The position numbers were made by a program, and so were the translations under genes. Positions 6,279-28,167 of a DNA stretch of 64,000 bases are shown in pieces; the stretch's first letter is position 1; each line of letters starts with the position of its first letter. Under the pieces are notes generated by a model. The model worked only from the letters and a program-made list of their open reading frames with translations, searched no databases and had not been told where the DNA came from. The DNA comes from a phage: sequence record PZ452579.1; one strand, written 5' to 3'.

Positions 6279-6800
6279 TCAGTAACCATTATCCTGACGT
6301 TCAAAGTTGTGTTGGTTTTTCAAGTAGTAAAGTTTAAAGATTTCTTCAGCAGAAAGACCCAGACCTTGGAACATATTCAGAACAAAGTGGAGGATATCAA
6401 TCATTTCAAATTTAATTTCAAGCTGGTCTTCAGGAGACAGTTCATCGATACGACGATTTCGATATTCAGTATGTTGTGCTTTCCAAGGCTTCCATACAGA
6501 GCTAGCGGCTTTTTCACCATTGCTCATACCGCCGAGAGAAGTCAGCAGTTCACGGAATTCATCATCAATATAATCTTTCTGATTACGCAGCCAATCAACA
6601 ACATCACCGGCAGTAGCCAATTCATCAGGATGTTTGTTATGTTCAGGCTTGTCATTTGCCAGACGAACCTGTAAAGATTTCTGCATATCAAGCATTACCT
6701 GCAGTGGGTCTTTATCTTCGTGAATAAGAGCATTAAAATAAGCTTCTTCTGCTTTATCAACACCAGAAATAAGTTGTGAACATTCGTTAAAGTGCGCCAT
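6279..6800 (-). CDS. 56: dCTPase/dUTPase gp56 (dCTP pyrophosphatase)
   Basis: MAHFNECSQLISGV... matches T4 gp56 start; track start at 6815 is upstream of the homologous Met. Confidence 0.85.
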   Translation of the reverse strand: MAHFNECSQLISGVDKAEEAYFNALIHEDKDPLQVMLDMQKSLQVRLANDKPEHNKHPDELATAGDVVDWLRNQKDYIDDEFRELLTSLGGMSNGEKAASSVWKPWKAQHTEYRNRRIDELSPEDQLEIKFEMIDILHFVLNMFQGLGLSAEEIFKLYYLKNQHNFERQDNGY

Positions 6801-9839: not shown

Positions 9840-10088
9840 TTATTCTTTTTCGCGAATAATAATTACTTGTTGAGGCTGCTGAGCAGATTTCTTTTCGGCA
9901 ACGATAGACCAAATTAAAGTTCCAATCCAACCAATCATCGTCCAGTTAAAGAGTAAAGATACAAAGAAGATTGCTGTTGTGCTTTTTGTGCCACGAATAA
10001 GTGCGATTACCCAAGGCAACATGTAAATGATGATTGAACCAATACCTGCGATTAAAACTGCTACTGAACTAGCTACGAATAATTCCAT
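9840..10088 (-). CDS. Small membrane protein (two TM)
   Basis: 82 aa, hydrophobic. Confidence 0.5.
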   Translation of the reverse strand: MELFVASSVAVLIAGIGSIIIYMLPWVIALIRGTKSTTAIFFVSLLFNWTMIGWIGTLIWSIVAEKKSAQQPQQVIIIREKE

Positions 10089-10149
10089 GTTAATTTCCTC
10101 TTGATTTGTTATGTTTATAGTATCTTGTTTTAACTTTGGTGTAAACCAA

Positions 10150-10518
10150 TTAATTAAATTTGTTTAAACGTTCAATACGCTGGACGTAGTTATTCGCGAT
10201 TTGTTTCTGGGTAGGCTCTTTACCAGTTGTTTCAACATAGCGAATGAATGCGATTTCAGTAGCCTGTAAGCAATGTTCTTTAACGCGCTGTTCTTTTGAC
10301 ATAGCTACAGTATCAGAATCACGATAACGTTGAGCATGAGCATCAGCTTGAATCATTCGATTACCTACAGTAACCGGGTCTTCCACTTCAACTTTAGGTT
10401 GTTCATATTGTTTAACATTCGGATTGTAAATCAGTTGGCCAACGTTATTAGGAATAAAGCCATGGGCACCACATCCGGTTAATCCAAATACCATTGCTAA
10501 AGCGATTAATTTTTTCAT
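10150..10518 (-). CDS. Putative lipoprotein
   Basis: 122 aa; signal peptide with lipobox LTGC. Confidence 0.55.
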   Translation of the reverse strand: MKKLIALAMVFGLTGCGAHGFIPNNVGQLIYNPNVKQYEQPKVEVEDPVTVGNRMIQADAHAQRYRDSDTVAMSKEQRVKEHCLQATEIAFIRYVETTGKEPTQKQIANNYVQRIERLNKFN

Positions 10519-13404: not shown

Positions 13405-14569
13405 CGAAATCTTCCATTTCGTCAAGGTCGTTTTCTATATCTGCTGCAGACGGAGCATCAGAAGTTTTAACCGGAACTTTAGTTGTTGCTTTGCAATTAA
13501 TAAGGTCGTTAACAGCGTCATCAACTTCTTTAATAGAAGAGATAGCACCTAGTTTATATTTAGTTTCAATTGCATCTCGGAAAGGTTTGTGTTTAAACAA
13601 AGGTCCCCAGAATTCTACACAATCAGTAGCTTTAGCACGCCATGATTTTTCTTCACGAATCATTTCACCTGTTTCTTCGTCAAGGAATTCGCGAGCATAC
13701 CAACCGGCTTTAGGCTTAACTACAAAACCAATTTCAGTTGCCATTTCTAACAAGCCACTGAATGGGTCAATACCGCCATCAAAATTAACCGTGATCGGGA
13801 AAGTAGATTTCTCTTTAACTGTGCGAGATTTTTCTGCTTTCAACGTGAAGTCATAACCGGTCAATTCTGTACCTTCTTTAACCTGACGTTTAGAGATAAA
13901 AAATACCGTGTTGGCAGAATAAAGAATACCTGTACCACCGCCCATAATCTCTTTAGGATACAATCCGCCGATTTCCATTGCTGTATGGTTAATTGCAACA
14001 CACGGAATATCTTTAATAGTCAAATACGGGGTCACAATACGGAAAAGAGATTTAAGTGCCTTAGCACGAGACATATCACCTACGACTTTCTCGTTCAATG
14101 CATCTTCGGTTTCTTTCTTAGATGCAGTATTACCAATCGAGTCAATAAAGATAATAACTTTATCACCGCGTTCAATAGCGTCAAGCTGATTAGTCATATC
14201 AACTTTAAGTTGTTCGACAGATTGAATCGGAGTATGAACTACACGGTCTAAATCAACACCCATTGAACGAAAATAAGATTCTGAAGCACCGAATTCTGAG
14301 TCATAAAACAAACAGATTGCATCTTTATATTTCTTCATATACGCTGCAACCATAGTTAGTCCAAACAACGTTTTAAAGTGTTTAGAAGGAGCAGCAAAAA
14401 TAGTTAAGCCTGATTGCAACCCTGCATTCAGAGCACCACCTAGTGCAATATTCAACATCGGAATACGAGTAGGGACTTCATCACGATTATTAAACAGCTT
14501 AGACTTAGTCAAGTCTGCAGTCATTTTAGAAGTAGAAGCTTTAATCAGACGAGATTTTAAATCAGACAT
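13397..14569 (-). CDS. uvsX: UvsX recombinase (RecA-like)
   Basis: 390 aa; MSDLKSRLIKASTSKMTA... and RecA fold motifs; matches T4 UvsX. Confidence 0.95.
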   Translation of the reverse strand: MSDLKSRLIKASTSKMTADLTKSKLFNNRDEVPTRIPMLNIALGGALNAGLQSGLTIFAAPSKHFKTLFGLTMVAAYMKKYKDAICLFYDSEFGASESYFRSMGVDLDRVVHTPIQSVEQLKVDMTNQLDAIERGDKVIIFIDSIGNTASKKETEDALNEKVVGDMSRAKALKSLFRIVTPYLTIKDIPCVAINHTAMEIGGLYPKEIMGGGTGILYSANTVFFISKRQVKEGTELTGYDFTLKAEKSRTVKEKSTFPITVNFDGGIDPFSGLLEMATEIGFVVKPKAGWYAREFLDEETGEMIREEKSWRAKATDCVEFWGPLFKHKPFRDAIETKYKLGAISSIKEVDDAVNDLINCKATTKVPVKTSDAPSAADIENDLDEMEDFDE

Positions 14570-14667
14570 TGTATTTTTCCATAGGCATCATTATATTTTA
14601 CTCATGTTTAAAAGATAAGATGATTATATACTAAGGGTTATACAGCATTTAAAACTTTAAATGGCTC

Positions 14668-15216
14668 TTAACGAGCCCATTTGATGATTTCTGTAATCAA
14701 ATCATTACGTTCGCTTGCATTAAATCCTATAACTTTGTTAGCACCATCATGATTAAGTAATTGATACGTTTGGATTTTGTTATGAATTGCAAACTCTTCA
14801 AAATGTGAAATGACTGTATTAAAACCGAATGAAGACAAAGTAATAAGGTCGTCTTCAAAACTTTCAGTCATTTCGTTACGTGTTAAAATAATTGTGAACA
14901 CATCATGGTTTTGGCAAAGACGAATATAATCCTGTTCATAAACGTCAAGAACCGAGTCCGCATCTTGTCGAATACGTCCATAAACCCAGTTACTAATATA
15001 TCCACGGTCTAACAGATAAATCTTAGTAGGGTCTAAATAATTCAACATCGTTTCGAAACAGCCAACTTCGTTTCGAGACTTAACATCGAAACGTCCATCA
15101 ACTGTTCGTTTAGGGAAATCAATCTTTACATATCTTTCACTAATTTCCATTATGTCATTAATGAAAGTTGTTTTACCAGCATTATCCGGGCCATCTACTA
15201 AAATAATTTTAGCCAT
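14668..15216 (-). CDS. P-loop kinase (dNK/dNMP-kinase or small sugar-kinase-like)
   Basis: 182 aa; Walker A GPDNAGKTT and LLDRGY (DR motif); occupies part of T4 beta-glucosyltransferase slot. Confidence 0.6.
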   Translation of the reverse strand: MAKIILVDGPDNAGKTTFINDIMEISERYVKIDFPKRTVDGRFDVKSRNEVGCFETMLNYLDPTKIYLLDRGYISNWVYGRIRQDADSVLDVYEQDYIRLCQNHDVFTIILTRNEMTESFEDDLITLSSFGFNTVISHFEEFAIHNKIQTYQLLNHDGANKVIGFNASERNDLITEIIKWAR

Positions 15217-15217
15217 T

Positions 15218-16117
15218 TTATTCCTCGATTACGACATCTTCGTATTTAGGTATATTATACGGCGAAGAAATTAAAGCATTAAAGTAGATGAACTCACCAA
15301 GACCTGGATGGAATACTTCTTCAGGATTTTCGAAATATTGAATCTTCGGACGTCCTTTAAGAATTTGATAGTACTCAGTTTTAGTCGGTTTAAAAATTCG
15401 AATCAGCGCTTCTTCAGGATACTTATTTCTGTCGAAGCTATTATTTGGATCGGTTATATAAAGCGGTTGACCTAATTGAATTGCACATTCAACCACTTGT
15501 TCAAAACGATAGCATGGGTCACTAATTCGAAATGGATGAAAAATACCATCTAGATGAATAGGAGCCAAATCACCTACAAGACGCTGCATGATGGAAGGAC
15601 GTATAACTTTCTGGGTTATGATAATCTTATTACCATCGGCACCAGCGTTAACCAGCACTTCCTTTTGACGTTTATTCAACACAGTTGTTTGGATTGAACG
15701 ATTAACCGACAACATGTCGGTTTTTAAGAATTCGTCAATATAAAAACGTGGTTTATTAGGGTCTGCGGTGATATTGAAATTGAATTCTACATCAAAAGCG
15801 CCGTCATATCCAGTGATATCTGTGATTAGAAAATCACAATCATAATAAGCAATTAATGAATCAACCACAAATTCATTTTCAGACCAGAAATATTTACGAG
15901 TGTTATACGCGTTATCTTTATACCATAATGGAACAAACTTAAATTCTGGGAAAAGACGTTCACATTCTTTAATATCAGATGCATTACGTGGATATGTAAT
16001 CACATCACCTGGATTAGCACGGTGCAAATGAAGTTGGAAGTTGCCATCCTTAAGGATAGCATACTGTCCAGTTTCATAAGACCGCATACTCAAGATAGGT
16101 ACGCGGAAAATAGCCAT
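15218..16117 (-). CDS. Hypothetical protein at bgt locus (candidate hmC sugar transferase)
   Basis: 299-aa ORF, tightly coupled to flanking genes; no recognisable motif; function inferred only from position. Confidence 0.5.
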   Translation of the reverse strand: MAIFRVPILSMRSYETGQYAILKDGNFQLHLHRANPGDVITYPRNASDIKECERLFPEFKFVPLWYKDNAYNTRKYFWSENEFVVDSLIAYYDCDFLITDITGYDGAFDVEFNFNITADPNKPRFYIDEFLKTDMLSVNRSIQTTVLNKRQKEVLVNAGADGNKIIITQKVIRPSIMQRLVGDLAPIHLDGIFHPFRISDPCYRFEQVVECAIQLGQPLYITDPNNSFDRNKYPEEALIRIFKPTKTEYYQILKGRPKIQYFENPEEVFHPGLGEFIYFNALISSPYNIPKYEDVVIEE

Positions 16118-16833
16118 TAGTCAAGGAATCCTTTAACATAATCAAAATCACGTTCAAACACATGGGCACTTACCATGGTATGAGTATAATCACCAACTTC
16201 TACACCACATTCGTTAGCGATATAATGAAGTAATTTTCCTTGGAGATAAAAATCCAACTGCATAACAACAGCACAGTTCTGAGAACGCATATGACAGTGG
16301 GTATAAAGCTTACCATCGCGAATATAATAAGTCACTGAGTCAGTACATGGATATTCAAGTGTTTCGTCCGAATCAAGCAAAGCCTGATCAGAACTTTCTA
16401 GAATTTGGAACACAACTCTTCGAGAGTTAGGCTTCTCTTTAAGTTCTTTTAGAAGAGCTGGTAATTGGGCTGCAATGCGAGGACCATAGAAAGTGTTGAA
16501 GTTCGCAGGCAAAGCATCTGATTTTGGTTTAGAAATAAATTTAGCGACATTAGGATATGCCTTAAACGCTTCTTCTGCATCAGTACCACCAGAAATCATA
16601 AATTTCCAGAAGTCTTCGGCATATTCATAAGAGATGCGGTTAATACGTGGGTCGGTCATTTTGAATGATGATGGAGTGTCAACAACTACTGTCATAGACC
16701 CAATTTCATTACAACGTCCAATACGAGAATCAGTTACGAATTCCGGGTTTTCTAAAATTTCACGATTGACTGCTTTAAATGCGGCTTGAAAATCTGCGGC
16801 TTTGATATATTTCATTGTGTTATGTTTTCCCAT
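16117..16833 (-). CDS. 42: Thymidylate-synthase-fold pyrimidine hydroxymethylase (gene 42-like dCMP hydroxymethylase)
   Basis: 238 aa; catalytic Cys in YPCTDS, RSQN...QLDFY segment alignable to T4 gp42 RSND...FRNDYA with Asp retained at the cytosine-specificity position; divergent from T4. Confidence 0.75.
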   Translation of the reverse strand: MGKHNTMKYIKAADFQAAFKAVNREILENPEFVTDSRIGRCNEIGSMTVVVDTPSSFKMTDPRINRISYEYAEDFWKFMISGGTDAEEAFKAYPNVAKFISKPKSDALPANFNTFYGPRIAAQLPALLKELKEKPNSRRVVFQILESSDQALLDSDETLEYPCTDSVTYYIRDGKLYTHCHMRSQNCAVVMQLDFYLQGKLLHYIANECGVEVGDYTHTMVSAHVFERDFDYVKGFLD

Positions 16834-16874
16834 GTTTACCTCAATACAGTTATTATATACTCAATTCATAAAGC

Positions 16875-17114
16875 TTATTTGAATTTCTTGGCAATGTTGA
16901 TATAACGTAAAGCTTCAGCATCGATACTTCCAAGAACACTATGAAGAAATGCATCAGCGTAATATTCTAGTTGAACAGGTTCTTTAATCACTTTAGCCGC
17001 TTTGGTTTCAAACAGGCCCATAAGGGCCTTTTTAAGAATTTGTTCGTTAGTGTTCAGTTTCATAGTCAAAATCTCTTCATTAAGTTGGTGGTTAAAAGTT
17101 TTTCTAGAAATCAT
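16875..17114 (-). CDS. Hypothetical soluble protein (imm position, not Imm-like)
   Basis: 79 aa, no TM segment. Confidence 0.45.
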   Translation of the reverse strand: MISRKTFNHQLNEEILTMKLNTNEQILKKALMGLFETKAAKVIKEPVQLEYYADAFLHSVLGSIDAEALRYINIAKKFK

Positions 17115-18271
17115 TCTGGGTACCTCAAAGCGTCGTCAGAGTTAGTTATATCAATAATAGATATAGAATTTTCTGATAACCCGTTTTTAGATAACTGACG
17201 TTTATAATATCTTTCACAATATGTACACGTCGTCCCGCAGATTTCATTAGCACAATCGAAATCTGGATGTCTGAACCACCTTTTTTCTAAAAAGCCATCT
17301 AACAAAGAGGTTTCAATATTTACTGTATGTGAAAACTCGGTCTCATTTTCAAGAGTGAAAATAGTCTCTAAAGGCTTCCACAGTTCTAACAAATTACCTT
17401 CAAACTTTTCAGAAGCGTATGCTTCAAGAACTTTCAAAATGTAGTCTGTGCTACCTGTACGTCCTGAAACTTTGAATTGAGTGATACCGATATCATTATA
17501 AAGTTTCAAATCTTGAGGACGAACAAAACGAGTTCTCAACCAGTTAAATGGGTCTGTATCACGAGCTTTAATACAGTGCTGCATTGGATATCCGTTTAAG
17601 GATTTAGCATCATCAGCTGTAACATCAGTACTATGGAAAATATAGCAAGAGTCACGATAGCTACAATGTGTTGTATACCCTTTACCAGCATTAGAACAGA
17701 ACTCATTTACAAGAACTTCAAATATTATATTGTTCTTATTGCAAAACTCTGCTGCACGCTTCAGGAAAGAAACTGAACGGTTCTTATGAATTCCGCAACA
17801 GACCTTTTTGATATTATATTGGTCATGCAAGTATTTGATTTGAGTTACAGCATCGACATGTAGAATTGTTGAAACTTCAATCTCAATGTCTTTATTGACT
17901 TCACGAACAATTTCCATAACAACAGGGTTAGCGATAGTAATACGCCATACGCCTATTGACCAAAGATACTGAACATAATCCTGAATAGCTTTCTTCTTCC
18001 ACTCAACTAGTTCTCTTTTTGAACCAGGATTTATCGTGTTGAGCGTATAGTTAAAGCAAATACCTAATTCGTTACAACGTTTAACGTAATCTTCTAACAT
18101 CTTTTTGTCAACGTCAGGAAGCCTAAAATCAGGTCTGGCTGCTACAAAAGCCATTTCTCTTGTAGAGCCGTATACTTCGTTTATCAAGCTATTAGGATAA
18201 GTTTTATTGAGCTCTACGATTTTATCAAGAAGAGCTAAATCAAAATTCGTTCCGATTTTAAAAGTATTCAT
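17111..18271 (-). CDS. Hypothetical Cys-rich protein within sugar cassette (candidate transferase)
   Basis: About 386 aa from MNTFKIG...; C-terminal CANEICGTTCTYC cluster; no confident family. Confidence 0.5.
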   Translation of the reverse strand: MNTFKIGTNFDLALLDKIVELNKTYPNSLINEVYGSTREMAFVAARPDFRLPDVDKKMLEDYVKRCNELGICFNYTLNTINPGSKRELVEWKKKAIQDYVQYLWSIGVWRITIANPVVMEIVREVNKDIEIEVSTILHVDAVTQIKYLHDQYNIKKVCCGIHKNRSVSFLKRAAEFCNKNNIIFEVLVNEFCSNAGKGYTTHCSYRDSCYIFHSTDVTADDAKSLNGYPMQHCIKARDTDPFNWLRTRFVRPQDLKLYNDIGITQFKVSGRTGSTDYILKVLEAYASEKFEGNLLELWKPLETIFTLENETEFSHTVNIETSLLDGFLEKRWFRHPDFDCANEICGTTCTYCERYYKRQLSKNGLSENSISIIDITNSDDALRYPE

Positions 18272-18327
18272 TTTTTTGCATCTCACGTTAATTGATGCGA
18301 TGGTTTTTGCAGGTCTTACTTAAATTA

Positions 18328-18714
18328 TTATAGATTCGGTTTATATGATTTAAATGTTTCGAATTCGCCTTTATTCATAAGAGCTTTGAATTCGTCAGGA
18401 CGCATAGCTTTGTCGTCGATAATCCAATCATATACTGGTTTATGTGTTAGCAAATTATGGTACTTTAAGCCAATGTTTGCCAAGTTCTGGATCAGACTTG
18501 GGAGAATGTCAATTGCTATACGACCAGGACCTACTGACTTCATACCGCGAGCAGTGTAAAGCGTTATGGTATGCCCTGCATCATACAGGGCATTAATGGC
18601 AGACACCATTTCGACGTCTGGTTTGAAGTTCACGTAATCACGATTGTTATTCCACTCTGTTATACAATCATCGACATCAAAACAAAGATTAAGCATGTTT
18701 TCTACACGGTGCAT
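18328..18714 (-). CDS. HAD-superfamily phosphatase (small, C0-type)
   Basis: FDVDDCIT (motif I), YTARG (motif II), KP...IIDDK (motifs III/IV); start ATG shares a base with upstream stop (TAATG). Confidence 0.7.
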   Translation of the reverse strand: MHRVENMLNLCFDVDDCITEWNNNRDYVNFKPDVEMVSAINALYDAGHTITLYTARGMKSVGPGRIAIDILPSLIQNLANIGLKYHNLLTHKPVYDWIIDDKAMRPDEFKALMNKGEFETFKSYKPNL

Positions 18715-20399
18715 TAGATTCGTTCCCATTGATGAGTGATATCGCCACCGATTGGACGATAGGAAACACCAGTTTCTTTATCAGTTAGTACCCATTTACC
18801 AGGATTTTTTGTAATCAGAGTAGCCGTTACAGGTTCTGCTACGTCATAACTAATAGAGCCGTCTTGAAGTACACGGCCCATATTACGTAATTGCTTAGTC
18901 AGAAGTTCCATACCTTTATAATATGCGGCTACCGCTTTAAGTGGATTATTCTTGAAATAACCACCTAATGCAATCCAGATAATTGCCACTGCCAAATGAT
19001 GATACTCGTTAAACGAACTCATCTTTCCATATTTGTAAACTAATGGATTGATGTTAATAGTCACATTACAAGTTGTTTCATCAATAGTAAACTGTCCCCA
19101 GGTCGGATTAGCGTTGAATTCATCATAACCTGAAACAGCATAAAGCACTTTAGCTTCATCGTACAATTTTGGCCCGTAAATCTTGGTTTCGCCAAAATAT
19201 CCACGAGGGTCGATAAACTTGACTTCGCCGTTATCAGTAATCATAGTATTACTGAAGTTCGGGTCACCATGAATAACAGAGTACTGTCCCTGAGAACGGT
19301 TATGATAACGAATAAGGTGTTCTAAAGCTTGTTTCAGCATTGGCTTCAGACGTCCAATCTTAGTGTAGTTCACATGTGTGATTTTACCAAATGAATCAAT
19401 CAATGGTTGAATGCTTTCACAACGATCAATAACTTTCGTATAGAATTCTTTAGTGAAATCACGACGAACAGTTTCAGGACTTACAAAATAAGTGTCTGTG
19501 CTGAATTTCAGTGCATCTAAAATTGCATCAACAATTTGTGGACGAGCAAGACTTGATTTGGATTTAATATATTCAAATGCCGGCTTACCTTTAATGCGTT
19601 CCATTTCAAAGTTATTTTCATTAACAGAAACTAACTGAGGAACTGAATCTGATTTCACTTTAAGATACCATGAAATCTCATCTTTCTGAAGAGCTCGGCC
19701 CTGTTCGGTTAATGCGAATTTAGTTACAGTTTCTTCACCAATTTCAACTGCATTAAAACTACGATTAAGTTCACGAACTTCATGAGCTTTTTCAAGTTTA
19801 GGCATATCACCTAAATCAATTAGATTCATAAGCTCTGATTTATTGAATGCACTGCCGTAAAGGAATTCTACGAAATCACGTCCTTTGCAGTATTCGTGAA
19901 TTTCCTCATCAGTAGAACCCATGTAGAATTCCCAGTCTTTGAACTGATAAATTCCTACAACATTACCACCTGTTGAACCTACGTTAGTGATATTTTCACC
20001 GTCGAAATTATATCGACATTCGTCACCCTTAACATAGATTGCGTTAACATTCCAAGACCATGAACCAAAATCAGGAATAATATCACACCAGTTAACAATT
20101 ACATTATGGCCGTCTAAATCTTTGTGTAATTTAGCAAGAGCATAAGCAGAACCATACGCTTCATCAACTGTACGAATAGTCACATTGAACCCTTCTTGCT
20201 CACAATAAGCTCGAACAGTTTCAGCAAATTTTGAATGAACTACTACAATAATTTCATCTGCGCCAAGGTCAGAATAAATTGTATACAAATTGCTCAGAAT
20301 AGTGTCTTGTTTATAGTTCACAAGAACTTTTGGAATATGGTGAGTAATTGGATATAAACGAGTTGCCAGTCCAGCACCAAGAATAACAGCTTTTTTCAT
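18714..20399 (-). CDS. Bifunctional sugar-1-phosphate nucleotidyltransferase / sugar kinase
   Basis: 561 aa; N-terminal ILGAGLATRL (GxGxR NTase motif), C-terminal IHGDPNFSNTMITDNGEVKFIDPRGYFG (APH/choline-kinase-like catalytic loop). Confidence 0.75.
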   Translation of the reverse strand: MKKAVILGAGLATRLYPITHHIPKVLVNYKQDTILSNLYTIYSDLGADEIIVVVHSKFAETVRAYCEQEGFNVTIRTVDEAYGSAYALAKLHKDLDGHNVIVNWCDIIPDFGSWSWNVNAIYVKGDECRYNFDGENITNVGSTGGNVVGIYQFKDWEFYMGSTDEEIHEYCKGRDFVEFLYGSAFNKSELMNLIDLGDMPKLEKAHEVRELNRSFNAVEIGEETVTKFALTEQGRALQKDEISWYLKVKSDSVPQLVSVNENNFEMERIKGKPAFEYIKSKSSLARPQIVDAILDALKFSTDTYFVSPETVRRDFTKEFYTKVIDRCESIQPLIDSFGKITHVNYTKIGRLKPMLKQALEHLIRYHNRSQGQYSVIHGDPNFSNTMITDNGEVKFIDPRGYFGETKIYGPKLYDEAKVLYAVSGYDEFNANPTWGQFTIDETTCNVTININPLVYKYGKMSSFNEYHHLAVAIIWIALGGYFKNNPLKAVAAYYKGMELLTKQLRNMGRVLQDGSISYDVAEPVTATLITKNPGKWVLTDKETGVSYRPIGGDITHQWERI

Positions 20400-20426
20400 G
20401 TTGAAGTCCTCATTGGTAAGTAGGAG

Positions 20427-20453
20427 TATTGTACACTATTCTAGTTAAAGCAT
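20427..20453 (-). promoter_or_regulatory. Candidate T4 middle promoter (MotA box + -10) upstream of the NTase/kinase gene
   Basis: Minus strand aATGCTTTAa then 11 nt then TACAAT, about 20 nt before RBS GAGGA and ATG at 20399. Confidence 0.4.
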
Positions 20454-20584
20454 TCATACTTTGCTTGTAGTCCAATCATAATCCATCCAATTACAAGTGT
20501 TGGAATCATTACTGGAGCCGTTAAGCTCCAGTAGATAGTCATGACAAGCATCAATAGTAAAAGTCCTATTGTTATTGCTTTCAT
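20441..20584 (-). CDS. 47-aa hydrophobic peptide (single TM)
   Basis: Manual translation MKAITIGLLLLMLVMTIYWSLTAPVMIPTLVIGWIMIGLQAKYECFN; ATG overlaps SIS gene stop (ATGA); below track size cut-off. Confidence 0.35.
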   Translation of the reverse strand: MKAITIGLLLLMLVMTIYWSLTAPVMIPTLVIGWIMIGLQAKYECFN

Positions 20585-21216
20585 TGTTCGCCTCGTAACA
20601 TGGCACCTAGTGCACCGCCTGGATGGAACTTAAGGAAATCATTAGAGGTAAATCCGCGTTCAGACGAAAGGTTGATAGCGAACGTATCGATAAGCGCTAA
20701 CAACAATGTAGTAGACATTGTCGGAGCTAAAGAGTTCTCGTCAACTTCTACCGCGATACCGGTACAGAACGTATAATCAAAAAGAGCTTCGTATTCTTGT
20801 GGAATGTCAGGGTTACAATGTAACAGAATCTGTTTAACCTGAGGACGAATCATACGAAGATGTTTAGCAACACCTATCATTTCTTCAGTCTTACCAGAAC
20901 GACTGATGTGAATCAACACATCATTAGGTGCAATAAATCCTGCGTCACCATGAGAATAATGCCCAGTGTTCAAATACATGCTAGGAATACCTAGTGAAGC
21001 AAAAGTCTCGGAAGCTTTAGTTGCGATATTAGCATTCTTACCAACACCTGTAATAATTACACGACTTTCATAATTACTCAGTCCAGGGCGACGAAGAGTT
21101 TCAAGAATAGCATTATATCGGGCAGGGTTTTGACTAATTACTTTAGCCATAGTGGCAAGAGATGAAGCTTGTTTTACGATTGCGTCAATAGCGATAGTGA
21201 TTGGTGTAGTTTTCAT
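20581..21216 (-). CDS. SIS-domain phosphosugar isomerase (KdsD/GutQ-like arabinose-5-phosphate isomerase, SIS domain only)
   Basis: 211 aa; ITGVGKNANIATK ... HGDAG ... SRSGKTEE pattern matching KdsD SIS domain rather than GmhA. Confidence 0.75.
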   Translation of the reverse strand: MKTTPITIAIDAIVKQASSLATMAKVISQNPARYNAILETLRRPGLSNYESRVIITGVGKNANIATKASETFASLGIPSMYLNTGHYSHGDAGFIAPNDVLIHISRSGKTEEMIGVAKHLRMIRPQVKQILLHCNPDIPQEYEALFDYTFCTGIAVEVDENSLAPTMSTTLLLALIDTFAINLSSERGFTSNDFLKFHPGGALGAMLRGEQ

Positions 21217-21256
21217 ATTTCTCTCATTTAATTAGTTGGCCGTCCTTGGCATTATA

Positions 21257-23968
21257 TCAAAAATCAAACATATCGAACAGAGATGCTTTCTTCTCGTAAT
21301 CGAGTTTCGCTGCTGATGTGAATCCTTCAAGCGGTTTAATAAATGTCTTCTCAAGGAGAACAGTGTAGTCCATCCAATGAAGTACATCATCTTTGATTAA
21401 ATCAGTGATTTCCGTACCAGAAGGCCATGCGATACATTTATCACCGAATGGGTTTCCTTCACGTAAAGGCAGAACATATACTTTTTCACCTTCTACAACT
21501 TGTGGAGCATCAATATTACCTTTGATAGCCCGGTTATATGTCAGAATTCCACGAATATGGAACGGGCATTTAGGTCCTGGATATCCACCTACATCATATT
21601 TAGCAATGTTATTCGCAGAAGATACCGACGCGATGCTAATATAATTCAATTGACGGAATTCTTTTTCAAACTCTTTAAAATATTCTTGTAATGATTCTTC
21701 ACCTTCTTGAAGCATACGACGAATACATTCTTTAAGAGCTTTCTGTACTGCTTTAGGAGTCGAAGATTTCTGAGTCTCTAGACCCATGATTTTGAGTTTA
21801 GGCTCAGCGTATCTGGTTCCTTCCATATCCCACACGTTTAATGCATAACGTTTCTTACCAGTCCAGAATCCACCAATACCTTTAGAACCGAGCGGAGGAC
21901 CAGCGATAGCTTCTCGGTCCATGAACATTAAGTGTTGTTTATTGTTCATGTATTCACACATTTCACGGAAACCTTTATCAATAGCTGGTTCCATACGTTC
22001 ACGTGCAAACTTATCTAAGAAGTCTACCCAATGGTTGGTATCACGGAATTTAGATTCACCAACCTTATCGATAATTTTATCAGCAGATACGTAAATAGAG
22101 TCTGTATCACCATAAAGAACGAAAGCTTCACCTTCTGTACCACAAACTTCATTCAGATATTCATTAACTTTACGTTCAATCCACTGTAAAGCCATTTGAC
22201 CAAATGTTGTGATTGCAGTAGCATTACGCAAATCATAATAACGGAACCAAACGTTGCCAAGTGCACCATAAAGTGAGTTGATAAGCAATTTACGGTTAAT
22301 CTGTGCAGTCATACCTGCAACTTCAGTACGTTGAGCTCTAAACAACATTTCATTAAGAGATTTAGCAGACAACTTTTTAATCTTTTCTTTAATCTCATCA
22401 CTGAAGTCGAAACGATAATCAACATCTAATGGTTCGTCAACAGAAAGATTAGGATTATGTAAGGCCTCTTTAATTATTTCACCATTACGTTGAGCCGCAA
22501 GCATATAACCTTTATGTTCTTTACGTTGATTAAAGACTTTAGTGATTTCAGTTGGAACAACACCGTCACGGTCTTTATAATACATCATGCCGTTAGGAGA
22601 ACAACTGTACACATCAGAAGGACGTTCAGCAACAGCGTTAATATAATCATGTAATGGAGCTACTTTAAACGTTCCTGCTATTGTTTCTGGGCTAATATTC
22701 ACTTGGCGAATGATGCTTGGATACAGAGATGTTAGGTCGAAGCTCATCACATATTTGTATCGATTTGGAATAGGTTCCTTAACAAAAGCACCCGGGTAAG
22801 GTTGAACTGGATGCGAACGACCTTGTGGAATCACCTTGTTTTGTTCTTTAAGGCTATTAAAAATAATAGCGTCCCACGTTTTAATTGGGCTAAACACAGA
22901 TTGAATCTGTATCTTAGCATAATAACCCATGTCCAAGCTCAAGTTAATGAACTGACGCTTAGCATCAATTTGCAATACACGATACACGTCGATAATGTTA
23001 TAAGAAATATATCGTTGGTGATTGCTTTCACGAAGCTTAGAAATAGGGCCATCATATTTCAGTTTACCAACGTTCAATTCAAATTCTGAAATGTAATCCA
23101 GAGAATACGACGGTTGATTGGTAAAAGAGAATTTTTTGTAAAGGTCGATGTAATCAAGAACAGAGATACCGAACAATGTAATGATTTCTCGTGAACCATA
23201 CATGTTTTCAATAACTTTAACACGAGTCTTGCGATGTGGTGACAACCGTTTTGCTGTGGATTCGCCAAAAATATTCTTGATTCGGTTATACACATATGGA
23301 ATATCAAATGACTCAACGTTCCATCCAGTCAAAATGACAGGAGTTTTCTGTTGCCAGAAGTTGAGATATTCCATCAACAATTCTTTTTCGTTATCGAACG
23401 GCATATAAATGATTTTATCGATAATTTCAGATGGAACTTCATCACCGCCTTGTTCTTGAAGCTTAGCAGCGATTTCAATAGACCATTCTTCTACATTACC
23501 ATATGGAGAATTCAATAGATCAAATACGTAGAACCTGTCGTCAATTGAGTCATAATGGGTGATAGCATCAATCGGATGTTTTGCTTGTGACGGCTCAGGG
23601 AACCCGTCCGGAGATGTTACTTCGATGTCGAAGTTAGCCACACGAATTTTTGTATGGTCGTATTTGATTTCATAGTTATAAGTGTCAGACAAATACGCCA
23701 ATTTGAAATCGTCCATGCCAAGTGCTTCAAGTCCGATATCTTCCATGCGTTTAATCCATTGTGAGGCATCACGCATATTAGCGAACAACTTACGAGTACA
23801 CGGCTTACCGTAGATATCGAAATATTTCGTAGCCTGACTTTCTGGACAATGAGCAAACAGTGATGGTTTATATTCTACTTCACGAGTACGTTCACGGCCG
23901 TTAGAATCGATGTAACGTTCAAAAATTGAATCACCGATCTGTTCAACCGTTAAGTAAAATTCTTTCAT
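21257..23968 (-). CDS. 43: DNA polymerase gp43 (family B)
   Basis: 903 aa; exonuclease and polymerase motifs including YGDTDS; T4 gp43 size and position. Confidence 0.95.
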   Translation of the reverse strand: MKEFYLTVEQIGDSIFERYIDSNGRERTREVEYKPSLFAHCPESQATKYFDIYGKPCTRKLFANMRDASQWIKRMEDIGLEALGMDDFKLAYLSDTYNYEIKYDHTKIRVANFDIEVTSPDGFPEPSQAKHPIDAITHYDSIDDRFYVFDLLNSPYGNVEEWSIEIAAKLQEQGGDEVPSEIIDKIIYMPFDNEKELLMEYLNFWQQKTPVILTGWNVESFDIPYVYNRIKNIFGESTAKRLSPHRKTRVKVIENMYGSREIITLFGISVLDYIDLYKKFSFTNQPSYSLDYISEFELNVGKLKYDGPISKLRESNHQRYISYNIIDVYRVLQIDAKRQFINLSLDMGYYAKIQIQSVFSPIKTWDAIIFNSLKEQNKVIPQGRSHPVQPYPGAFVKEPIPNRYKYVMSFDLTSLYPSIIRQVNISPETIAGTFKVAPLHDYINAVAERPSDVYSCSPNGMMYYKDRDGVVPTEITKVFNQRKEHKGYMLAAQRNGEIIKEALHNPNLSVDEPLDVDYRFDFSDEIKEKIKKLSAKSLNEMLFRAQRTEVAGMTAQINRKLLINSLYGALGNVWFRYYDLRNATAITTFGQMALQWIERKVNEYLNEVCGTEGEAFVLYGDTDSIYVSADKIIDKVGESKFRDTNHWVDFLDKFARERMEPAIDKGFREMCEYMNNKQHLMFMDREAIAGPPLGSKGIGGFWTGKKRYALNVWDMEGTRYAEPKLKIMGLETQKSSTPKAVQKALKECIRRMLQEGEESLQEYFKEFEKEFRQLNYISIASVSSANNIAKYDVGGYPGPKCPFHIRGILTYNRAIKGNIDAPQVVEGEKVYVLPLREGNPFGDKCIAWPSGTEITDLIKDDVLHWMDYTVLLEKTFIKPLEGFTSAAKLDYEKKASLFDMFDF

Positions 23969-27450: not shown

Positions 27451-28167
27451 ATGAATTATAACTCAATATACGAAAAGCTTATCACCAATGCTAAATCAAG
27501 AAGTTTAGATGGTTATACAGAACGTCATCACATTATACCACAATGTTTAGGTGGAAGTGATGATGCTTTAAACTTAGTAGACTTAACACCGGAAGAACAT
27601 TATTTGGCACATCAACTGTTGGTAAAAATCCATCCAGATAATGCCTCTTTAATATATGCCGCTCGTATGATGACCATATCATCTCCTAAAGCAGATAGAA
27701 GCAAAAACAAATTATTTGGATGGCTTCGACGTAAGAATCAAGAAGTTCAAAAGAACAAAGAATTCACTGCTGAAACCCGTAAGAAAATGTCTGAGTCTGC
27801 AAAAAATAAACCAAAGATTACATGTCCACACTGCGGTTTAACCGGCACTGAAGGAAACATGAGACGTTGGCATTTTGATAACTGTAAACAAGGCCCTACG
27901 CCTAAAATAGTAAAACTTGATCAAGAAACAAAAGATAAAATAATTAAAACCATGGCCACGAAAATTTGGAAAGAAGATTCTTGCCCGTTTTGTGGCTTAA
28001 CTACTAAGTTATCGGCGTTAAAGCCACATATAAAATTCTGTAAATCAAATCCTAACAGAAAGAAAAAAGAGGACAAGAAAATTAAATGTCCTCATTGCGA
28101 TAAAATAGGGATCCCTGCTAATATGCATCGTTGGCATTTTGATAACTGTAAACATAAGCCTCATTAA
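27451..28167 (+). mobile_element. Free-standing HNH homing endonuclease with three C-terminal zinc-binding repeats
   Basis: 238 aa; ERHHIIPQCLGGSDDALNLVDLTPEEHYLAHQ (HNH); three CxxC...RWHFDNCK-type modules; only sizeable plus-strand gene in this block. Confidence 0.8.

Follow-up and report, generated by a model that had tools for sequence, protein, structure and literature searches.

The enzymes closest to the gene considered here share the thymidylate synthase (TS) fold and differ in the chemistry that they perform at C5 of the pyrimidine. T4 gp42 (PDB 1B5E family) moves a one-carbon unit from methylene-THF, whereas enzymes of the RB69 gp48/AfhB type bind flavin and insert oxygen from O2; assayed side by side, T4 gp42 yields 5hmdC and RB69 gp48 yields 5hodC (PMC13326640). 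RB69 gp48 together with a dNMP kinase gives rise to 5hodC in E. coli DNA, labelling with 18O2 makes its product heavier by 2 Da (i.e. the oxygen comes from O2), and the protein, yellow when purified, gives off a loosely bound, FMN-like flavin (PMC13326640). The substitution D169N has been described as diagnostic for hydroxylases versus hydroxymethylases, nine of nine diverse homologues carrying it having made 5hodC (PMC13326640), and in RB69 DNA arabinose is attached by an ether oxygen placed straight on C5. For the homologue from phage HY126, AfhB, structures have been deposited (PDB 9IQC, 9IR2 and 9IQU), the first under the title 'Monooxygenase dependent on riboflavin with dCMP and FAD' and the last as 'phage HY126 dCMP hydroxylase-AfhB with substrate dCMP'; the flavin species thus differs by source, being riboflavin and FAD in the PDB titles and FMN-like in PMC13326640. 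MilA, the CMP 5-hydroxymethylase of mildiomycin biosynthesis (PDB 5JNH and 5B6D), and E. coli ThyA complete the set used for comparison.

The window (the whole stretch of 64,000 nucleotides that was analysed, phage record PZ452579.1) is that of a Mosigvirus. Its TS-fold gene occupies exactly 16117..16833 on the minus strand and encodes 238 amino acids from an ATG start, with a GAGGT Shine–Dalgarno sequence 5 nt 5' of the ATG and a stop codon that shares the sequence TAATG with the start codon of the gene that follows. The protein is identical to RB69 gp48 at 237 of 238 residues (99.6%; the sole difference is at residue 17, Ala versus Thr) and to HY126 AfhB (PDB 9iqc) at 235 of 238, with three substitutions; 9iqu matches as well, and phage PTK carries a copy that is 100% identical. 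These differences from gp48 and AfhB (between one and three) are conservative and all lie outside the catalytic motifs, while length, genomic position and signature residues are the same. That the protein has the TS fold, as the preliminary description had proposed, is borne out by matches to Pfam PF00303 (Thymidylat_synt, E 2.4e-15) and phrog_160 (1e-46) and by an AlphaFold2 model (pLDDT 86.8) for which Foldseek returned 9iqc (TM 0.94), 9iqu (TM 0.88), MilA (TM 0.84, the closest solved structure outside the hydroxylase family) and ThyA structures (TM about 0.7). On these comparisons the gene almost certainly encodes a flavin-dependent dCMP 5-hydroxylase (5hodCMP synthase) on a TS fold, the same enzyme as RB69 gp48 and HY126 AfhB. 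This reading is already known, the enzyme type having been published in 2025–2026, and the gene is counted as already explained because near-identical phage proteins have been shown to hydroxylate dCMP.

The residues expected to set this enzyme apart were located in a MAFFT alignment of 123 sequences, including E. coli ThyA, T4 gp42 and 120 relatives. A YPCTDS motif holds Cys163, and the codons for Glu160-Tyr-Pro-Cys163 lie at 16345..16356 (minus strand); Cys163 is the catalytic nucleophile, as had been suggested from the motif, and aligns with Cys146 of E. coli and Cys148 of T4, and Glu160 stands at the position of E. coli Leu143 (L143E). The segment RSQNCAVVMQLD, which spans Arg183 to Asp194 and is encoded at 16252..16287 (minus strand), was placed by pairwise, HMM and MAFFT alignments, according to which Arg183 and the adjacent Ser are phosphate binders, Asn186 is the D169N residue, Val190 replaces Gly173 and Asp194 (N177D) is the cytosine-specificity residue. 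Alignment with gp42 and ThyA, which the preliminary description had called for, puts the predicted specificity Asp where it was expected, Asp194 pairing with Asn177 of E. coli and Asp179 of T4. BLASTP against gp42, HMMER against S. aureus TS and the 123-sequence MAFFT alignment all agree on this register. One pairwise BLASTP alignment with E. coli ThyA shifted the RS...D segment by two residues; it was outvoted by the HMM and multiple alignments, and the shifted register was rejected because in the other one the invariant Arg-Ser that binds phosphate falls opposite Arg166-Ser167. With Asp194 at the cytosine-specificity position, the substrate is therefore expected to be dCMP. Cys163, Glu160, Asn186, Val190 and Asp194 are each invariant in the relatives (120/120). 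The Ala97 codon (16543..16545, minus strand) falls at the position of E. coli ThyA Trp80, a conserved TS active-site residue that is Trp in both ThyA and gp42 and Ala (112/120) or Ser (8/120) in the relatives; taken together Asp169, Trp80 and Gly173, all kept by ThyA and gp42, are replaced in 120 of 120. It can be added that the alignment in the preliminary description had itself paired RSQN with T4 RSND, which is the D169N signature, and that this was overlooked there.

In the near-identical proteins the flavin sits at the site that folate occupies in TS enzymes, and dCMP is converted into 5-hydroxy-dCMP with an oxygen atom taken from O2; the same would hold for the protein of the window. By analogy with TS and flavin-monooxygenase chemistry, Asp194 would pick the cytosine ring and Cys163 would add to C6 of dCMP, making C5 nucleophilic; C5 would then attack a flavin-C4a-hydroperoxide made from reduced flavin and O2, and elimination of Cys163 would release 5hodCMP. 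The reduced flavin is presumed to be supplied by the host because the window has no recognisable flavin reductase: tblastn searches of the window with the flavodoxin-like neighbours of the homologous loci L005 and L007 gave no match below E 1. In distant myovirus contigs a Flavodoxin_2/FMN-reductase-like gene lies directly upstream of the hydroxylase homologue, which lends independent contextual support to the use of flavin. After the hydroxylase step, 5hodCMP would be taken to 5hodCTP by host kinases together with the dNMP kinase of the phage, the phage dCTPase would keep the pool free of dCTP, and the polymerase would put 5-hydroxycytosine into DNA, where the product of the adjacent glycosyltransferase gene would add arabinose from UDP-arabinose to the hydroxyl. 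The UDP-arabinose would in turn be made by the products of genes nearby, those for the isomerase, the kinase/nucleotidyltransferase and the phosphatase.

The hydroxylase gene lies inside the known arabinosyl-5-hydroxycytosine cassette, which here extends over 14668..21216 between uvsX and gene 43, is syntenic with that of RB69 and lies entirely on the minus strand as far as the genes named below are concerned. A thymidylate-kinase-like nucleotide kinase (14668..15216, 182 aa, phrog_761) is the RB69 gp45 homologue by synteny, and a candidate DNA arabinosyltransferase 1 (15218..16117, 299 aa, phrog_3891) occupies the RB69p046/047 position, the corresponding RB69 gp46:47 having been assigned that activity (Table 1 of PMC13326640). 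Beyond the hydroxylase come a 79-amino-acid protein (16875..17114, phrog_8601, RB69 gp49 homologue), a Peptidase_U32-family protein (17111..18286, RB69 gp50 homologue, 386 aa if the Bas46 start is used), a HAD-type sugar phosphatase (18328..18729, RB69 gp51/AfhF homologue, TIGR01689 E 4e-13), a bifunctional sugar-1-phosphate nucleotidyltransferase and kinase (18714..20399, RB69 gp52:53/AfhE homologue, with an N-terminal PF00483 match, weak C-terminal kinase matches and NCBIfam matches) and an arabinose-5-phosphate isomerase of the KpsF/GutQ family (20581..21216, RB69 gp55 homologue, SIS domain, TIGR00393 E 5e-32); the roles of the phosphatase and of the bifunctional protein follow those published (PMC13326640). 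Outside the cassette, a gp56-type dCTPase (6279..6800, minus strand, ATG start, PF08761 dUTPase_2) would supply dCMP and remove dCTP, and Bas46 has a dCTPase/dCDPase annotated at the matching position. Scans for promoters and terminators over 14400..21400 gave counts that were not above those for shuffled sequence. The suggestion that the gene moves together with the sugar genes holds up: the trio of hydroxylase, glycosyltransferase and thymidylate-kinase-like gene recurs in distant contigs in unrelated genomic contexts, the thymidylate-kinase-like gene likewise coming after the hydroxylase–glycosyltransferase pair in L005, and the glycosyltransferase at 15218..16117 is 46% identical to the neighbour in Acinetobacter phage KARL-1 and 36% identical to that in a distant myovirus contig.

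The hosts of these phages are gut bacteria, for which anoxia is common, although the TS-fold hydroxylase depends on O2. It is conceivable that the hydroxylase forms only the aerobic arm of the pathway, the U32 protein making the same 5-hydroxycytosine under anoxia with prephenate as oxygen donor. If so, the U32 gene would encode an O2-independent, prephenate-dependent cytosine C5 hydroxylase and a single cassette would hold both an aerobic and an anaerobic route; we put this forward tentatively, as an analogy that may well turn out not to apply. Enzymes of the U32 family carry out O2-independent, prephenate-dependent hydroxylations, including formation of 5-hydroxycytidine in rRNA by RlhA, and the U32 gene is in the cassette beside the hydroxylase, with a true chorismate mutase gene between the two in 42 related phage genomes. 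The family, found in 222 phage records of which none is from Acinetobacter, is absent from all hydroxylase-bearing Acinetobacter phages, which still make arabinosyl-5hoC. The protein itself matches PF01136 (E 7.5e-11) and, weakly, UbiU. U32 enzymes have a conserved Glu, and Cys residues have been shown to be essential in RlhA; in an alignment with UbiU, UbiV and RlhA, this Glu, the first Cys of the motif and one invariant Cys fall into register. Against the proposal, its identity to these three is just 16–20%, and where RlhA has Cys176 it has no Cys, although other Cys residues lie near that position and more are clustered at the C-terminus. The Dhakaviruses of E. coli have the hydroxylase without the U32 protein, the window has no recognisable chorismate mutase, and the sole published label of the RB69 homologue is 'sugar or heterocycle reductase' (PMC13326640). 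No PDB entry matched the sequence of the U32 protein at E 1, and the idea of an anaerobic route is not mentioned in the searchable literature, He et al. (2026) and Mahler et al. (2025) being beyond its reach. The arrangement recalls that of UbiI/H/F (flavin enzymes that need O2) and UbiU/V (U32 enzymes that do not) in E. coli, in that a flavin/O2-dependent hydroxylase and a U32 protein are here encoded side by side for one class of product and related phages add a chorismate mutase, but the likeness is one of analogy only. Were the proposal true, the U32/chorismate mutase route would explain how a gut phage could replace all of its cytosine without oxygen, and DNA precursors would join RNA and quinones as substrates of prephenate-dependent hydroxylation.

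The slot that is taken in related phages by the chorismate mutase, also of 79 amino acids, is filled in the window by the 79-amino-acid ORF (phrog_8601), a family confined to Mosigvirus relatives. The idea that this ORF is a cryptic chorismate mutase was not supported: it had no Pfam match at E 10, a BLASTP comparison with the chorismate mutase of the Klebsiella phage returned E 6.8, hhalign gave a probability of 0.1%, and the AlphaFold2 model (pLDDT 62, pTM 0.34) was too poor to use.

As to the TS-fold enzyme itself, it might instead depend on folate and make 5-hydroxymethyl-dCMP, as a divergent member of the T4 gp42 type of dCMP hydroxymethylases would; this is a common GenBank label and was the reading of the preliminary description. 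The similarities are real: the gene occupies the T4 gene 42 slot between uvsX and gene 43, its product would perform the opening step of a glycosylated-cytosine pathway as gp42 does, and the two proteins have in common the TS fold, the dCMP substrate, the catalytic Cys, the specificity Asp and, where E. coli has Leu143, an acidic residue. We nevertheless regard this account as highly improbable. RB69 gp48, one residue away, makes 5hodC and not 5hmdC when placed beside T4 gp42, it carries flavin, and AfhB, a 99% identical protein, was deposited as a flavin monooxygenase and has flavin in its solved structure; the arabinose of RB69 DNA on an ether oxygen at C5 is likewise at odds with a hydroxymethyl group. 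Where gp42 keeps Asp171, Trp and Gly, the hydroxylase has Asn186, Ala97 and Val190. Nor is there any specific relationship with gp42: against the hydroxylase-family profile MilA scores 66 bits, and gp42, with 48 bits, hardly differs from ThyA, with 45 bits. Of the earlier reading, then, dCMP as substrate stands by virtue of Asp194, and the chemistry does not, a hydroxyl being added rather than a hydroxymethyl. The accompanying remark that the protein is more divergent from gp42 than its neighbours are from their T4 counterparts was correct (25% identity in BLASTP, as compared with 85% for gp41, 82% for gp46, 79% for gp45, 77% for gp44, 68% for UvsX and 62% for gp43). The low figure, as judged from these sequence comparisons, reflects membership of another branch within the TS superfamily and not rapid divergence of gp42. 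MilA resembles the hydroxylase in being cytosine-specific, in its Asp at the specificity position and in matching the profile over its full length, but differs in being only 23% identical, a hydroxymethylase preferring a ribonucleotide, and about 80 residues longer.

That the gene encodes an ordinary thymidylate synthase converting dUMP to dTMP, as many database records say, is hardly credible, for despite the Pfam Thymidylat_synt match and the 'thymidylate synthase' or 'thyA' labels in numerous phage genomes, the specificity residue is Asp194 and not Asn, the ThyA C-terminal extension is missing, all NCBIfam equivalog cut-offs were failed (e.g. 68.4 bits, the best, versus 174.55, and 50 versus 108), and labels such as thyA_1 and thyA_2 suggest that the genomes bearing them encode a true thymidylate synthase as well, by another gene. 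E. coli ThyA shares with the hydroxylase the fold, the catalytic Cys and the phosphate-binding residues Arg126, Arg127, Arg166 and Ser167, but it has Asn177 in place of Asp194 and is 30% identical over the C-terminal half only; the hydroxylase has neither the ThyA C-terminal tail nor the conserved TS active-site residues, and Ala263 and Ile264 of E. coli are unmatched in it because that extension is missing. Searches of the window with T4 gp42 and E. coli ThyA for a second TS homologue or a true gp42 matched the hydroxylase ORF only.

The flavin-dependent hydroxylase reading has corrective value, since it makes of this TS-fold protein an enzyme that has gone from folate to flavin and from carbon transfer to oxygen insertion, a striking switch of cofactor. 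For TS homologues with Asp at the Asn177 position it suggests a rule, by which Asp at the Asp169 position would indicate a hydroxymethylase and Asn a hydroxylase. More than 300 phage genomes name the protein thymidylate synthase, dCMP hydroxymethylase or hypothetical protein, and the label of hydroxymethylase given to it in the preliminary description was a natural mistake, the same as is found in phage genome records.

The thymidylate synthase (TS) homolog is encoded at 16117..16833 (-), exactly where the preliminary description had placed it, as an ATG-initiated ORF of 238 aa with a GAGGT ribosome-binding site 5 nt 5' of the ATG and a stop codon overlapping the start of the next gene (TAATG). 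It has the TS fold claimed for it: it matches PF00303 (Pfam, E 2.4e-15) and PHROG 160 (E 1e-46), and its AlphaFold2 model (mean pLDDT 86.8) gives a TM score of 0.84 against MilA and about 0.7 against many ThyA structures. The motifs YPCTDS and RSQNCAVVMQLD are both found. Cys163 falls opposite E. coli Cys146 and T4 Cys148, and Asp194 opposite E. coli Asn177 and T4 Asp179, a register on which BLASTP against gp42, HMMER against staphylococcal TS and a MAFFT alignment of 123 sequences all agree and which bears out both the catalytic Cys and the Asp proposed at the cytosine-specificity position. In a single pairwise BLASTP the RS...D segment slips by two residues relative to E. coli ThyA; that alignment was discounted in favour of the register above, in which the invariant Arg-Ser that binds phosphate falls on Arg166-Ser167.

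The same description took the protein for a dCMP hydroxymethylase; the substrate stands but the chemistry does not, as the near-identical RB69 gp48 and AfhB (the dCMP hydroxylase of phage HY126) are flavin hydroxylases. The homolog is identical to gp48 at 237 of 238 positions and differs from PDB 9IQC/9IR2 at three residues; 9IQU also matches. Foldseek matches (both released 2025-07-16) are entitled "Monooxygenase dependent on riboflavin with dCMP and FAD" and "phage HY126 dCMP hydroxylase-AfhB with substrate dCMP". The near-identical proteins convert dCMP to 5-hydroxy-dCMP (5hodCMP) with flavin bound and oxygen taken from O2. In RB69 DNA arabinose is joined via an ether oxygen straight to cytosine C5 (Lee et al., Nucleic Acids Res 2026, PMC13326640). 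RB69 gp48 with the phage dNMP kinase placed 5-hydroxy-dC (5hodC) in E. coli DNA, whereas T4 gp42 in the same assay gave 5-hydroxymethyl-dC; the oxygen in the gp48 product derives from 18O2, and purified gp48 is yellow and released an FMN-like flavin (PMC13326640). For in vitro reconstitution and for the crystal structure of the HY126 enzyme with flavin, that paper cites He et al. (Nat Chem Biol 2026). The feature has thus been described before and is well characterised. The same protein appears in over 300 phage genomes, labelled thymidylate synthase, thyA, dCMP hydroxymethylase, deoxycytidylate 5-hydroxymethyltransferase or hypothetical, and none of its records among those listed names the experimentally supported function.

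Replacement of Asp by Asn at the position of E. coli Asp169 is the published diagnostic of 5hodCMP synthases, and nine diverse homologs picked by Asn at position 169 all made 5hodC (9/9). The alignment in the preliminary description itself set T4 RSND opposite RSQN of the homolog. In a survey of 120 relatives taken from the protein collection, Cys 146, Glu 143, Asn 169 and Asp 177 (E. coli numbering) were invariant, and every relative had Val at the Gly173 position and Ala or Ser in place of Trp80; T4 gp42, in contrast, retains Asp, Gly and Trp at positions 169, 173 and 80. As all three are replaced, the family no longer has conserved active-site residues of TS but retains the ligands of the nucleotide phosphate (Arg126, Arg127, Arg166 and Ser167), a pattern that fits a cofactor switch.

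With 25% identity to T4 gp42, the homolog is, as had been claimed, far more divergent from its T4 counterpart than are the replication proteins (gp41 85%, gp46 82%, gp40 81%, gp45 and RegA 79% each, gp44 77%, gp62 73%, UvsX 68% and gp43 62%). It is nevertheless 70% identical to its homolog in Acinetobacter phage KARL-1, of a different Straboviridae subfamily, as against 59% for the replicative helicase and 46% for the adjacent glycosyltransferase of the same phage pair, and the hydroxylase family is well conserved. Scored against a profile of 43 family members, MilA reached 66 bits across its whole length, compared with 48 bits for T4 gp42 and about 45 for ThyA. These scores and the conservation of the family indicate that the low identity to gp42 marks a separate TS-superfamily branch in the gene-42 slot; on these comparisons the slot has undergone non-orthologous displacement rather than accelerated divergence of gp42.

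The DNA of this region is 98% identical to that of Mosigvirus phages such as MM02, PhAPEC2, APCEc01 and Bas46 (ChristianSchoenbein), and is syntenic with RB69. The T4 genes separating uvsX from gene 43 are segA, beta-glucosyltransferase, gene 42, imm and imm.1. In their place, reading from uvsX, the window has a thymidylate-kinase-like kinase, a 299-aa glycosyltransferase candidate, the TS homolog and a 79-aa ORF, then a U32-family protein, a HAD phosphatase, a nucleotidyltransferase/kinase fusion and arabinose-5-phosphate isomerase; counterparts of T4 beta-gt and segA were not found in the window. Homologs of imm and imm.1, which in T4 lie between genes 42 and 43, are at ~9843..10512 (-), near dmd, and from this displacement the entire uvsX-to-43 interval has been remodelled around the arabinosylation cassette. 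Elsewhere, the homologs of 45.2 and gene 46, only ~55 nt apart in T4, are separated in the window by an opposite-strand 238-aa ORF amid minus-strand genes at 27451..28167 (+), possibly an insertion of mobile or homing type; its only matches were weak zinc-ribbon ones, all under Pfam cut-offs.

Two distant myovirus contigs (L005 and L007) carry counterparts 56-61% identical to the TS homolog, beside tail-sheath rather than replication genes and followed directly by a homolog of the window's glycosyltransferase (36% identical) and by a thymidylate-kinase-like gene. With this linkage kept, it is reasonable to suppose, as first suggested, that the homolog arrived with the sugar genes. Immediately upstream of it in both contigs is a Flavodoxin_2 / FMN-reductase-like gene (L005 7162..7668, L007 7475..7969; 51-71 bits) resembling the reductase component of two-component flavin monooxygenases, which provides independent contextual support for flavin chemistry; the arrangement looks like a compact module of reductase, hydroxylase, transferase and kinase. 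No counterpart of this gene was found within the window, leaving the host as the presumed source of reduced flavin. In the proposed mechanism Asp194 would read the N3/N4 face of cytosine, Cys163 would attack C6, the activated C5 would attack the flavin hydroperoxide, and elimination of the Cys would restore the ring and release 5hodCMP; dCTPase (6279..6800), dNMP kinase, polymerase and arabinosyltransferases complete the pathway downstream.

The neighbouring Peptidase_U32-family protein (391 aa, 17111..18286 (-); Pfam, with a weak UbiU match) raises the tentative and rather doubtful possibility of an anaerobic, prephenate-dependent route to 5-hydroxycytosine (5hoC). Known U32 enzymes are iron-sulfur proteins that hydroxylate independently of O2 with prephenate as oxygen donor, and one of them, RlhA, makes 5-hydroxycytidine in 23S rRNA. 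Prephenate is the product of chorismate mutase, and Klebsiella phage KLB31 encodes a genuine one: its 79-aa gene separating U32 from the TS homolog scores 38.5 bits for CM_2, above the cut-off of 27. By tblastn this chorismate mutase is present in 42 phage genomes spanning ten host genera, and it adjoins the TS homolog in the records listed among them. In these 42 related genomes the U32 gene is paired with it (L009 5983..7394). The distribution likewise favours such a route, the U32 gene being in 222 phage records (listed genera all Enterobacterales, plus Shewanella phage Thanatos) and absent from all hydroxylase-carrying Acinetobacter phages, which make up 57 of the 346 records with the hydroxylase. 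These phages still make arabinosyl-5hoC, so U32 is dispensable for the product when oxygen is present. Against the route, Dhakaviruses of E. coli lack U32 as well, and the phage protein shares just 16-20% identity with UbiU, UbiV and RlhA, has no Cys opposite RlhA Cys176, and in the window is accompanied by a 79-aa ORF (16875..17114 (-)) which has the slot and length of the chorismate mutase but no similarity to it detectable by sequence comparison. Members of this ORF's family occur only among Mosigvirus relatives, and some of the versions in databases are shortened to ~51 aa. Lee et al. label the RB69 U32 homolog only "sugar or heterocycle reductase" (PMC13326640), and no mention of an anaerobic U32 route was found in the searchable literature, outside which lie He et al. 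2026 and Mahler et al. 2025.

Across all 222 records, Thanatos included, the U32 protein never drops below 80% identity, whereas the hydroxylase ranges down to 38%; more distant phage U32 homologs were not found even at E 1e-3. So narrow a range suggests that the protein either is under very strong constraint or has spread recently. A C-terminal Cys cluster, DCANEICGTTCTYC (residues ~325-340, 18090..18140 region), to which UbiU has no counterpart in the alignment, recalls the essential C-terminal cysteines of RlhA and may be a second metal site.
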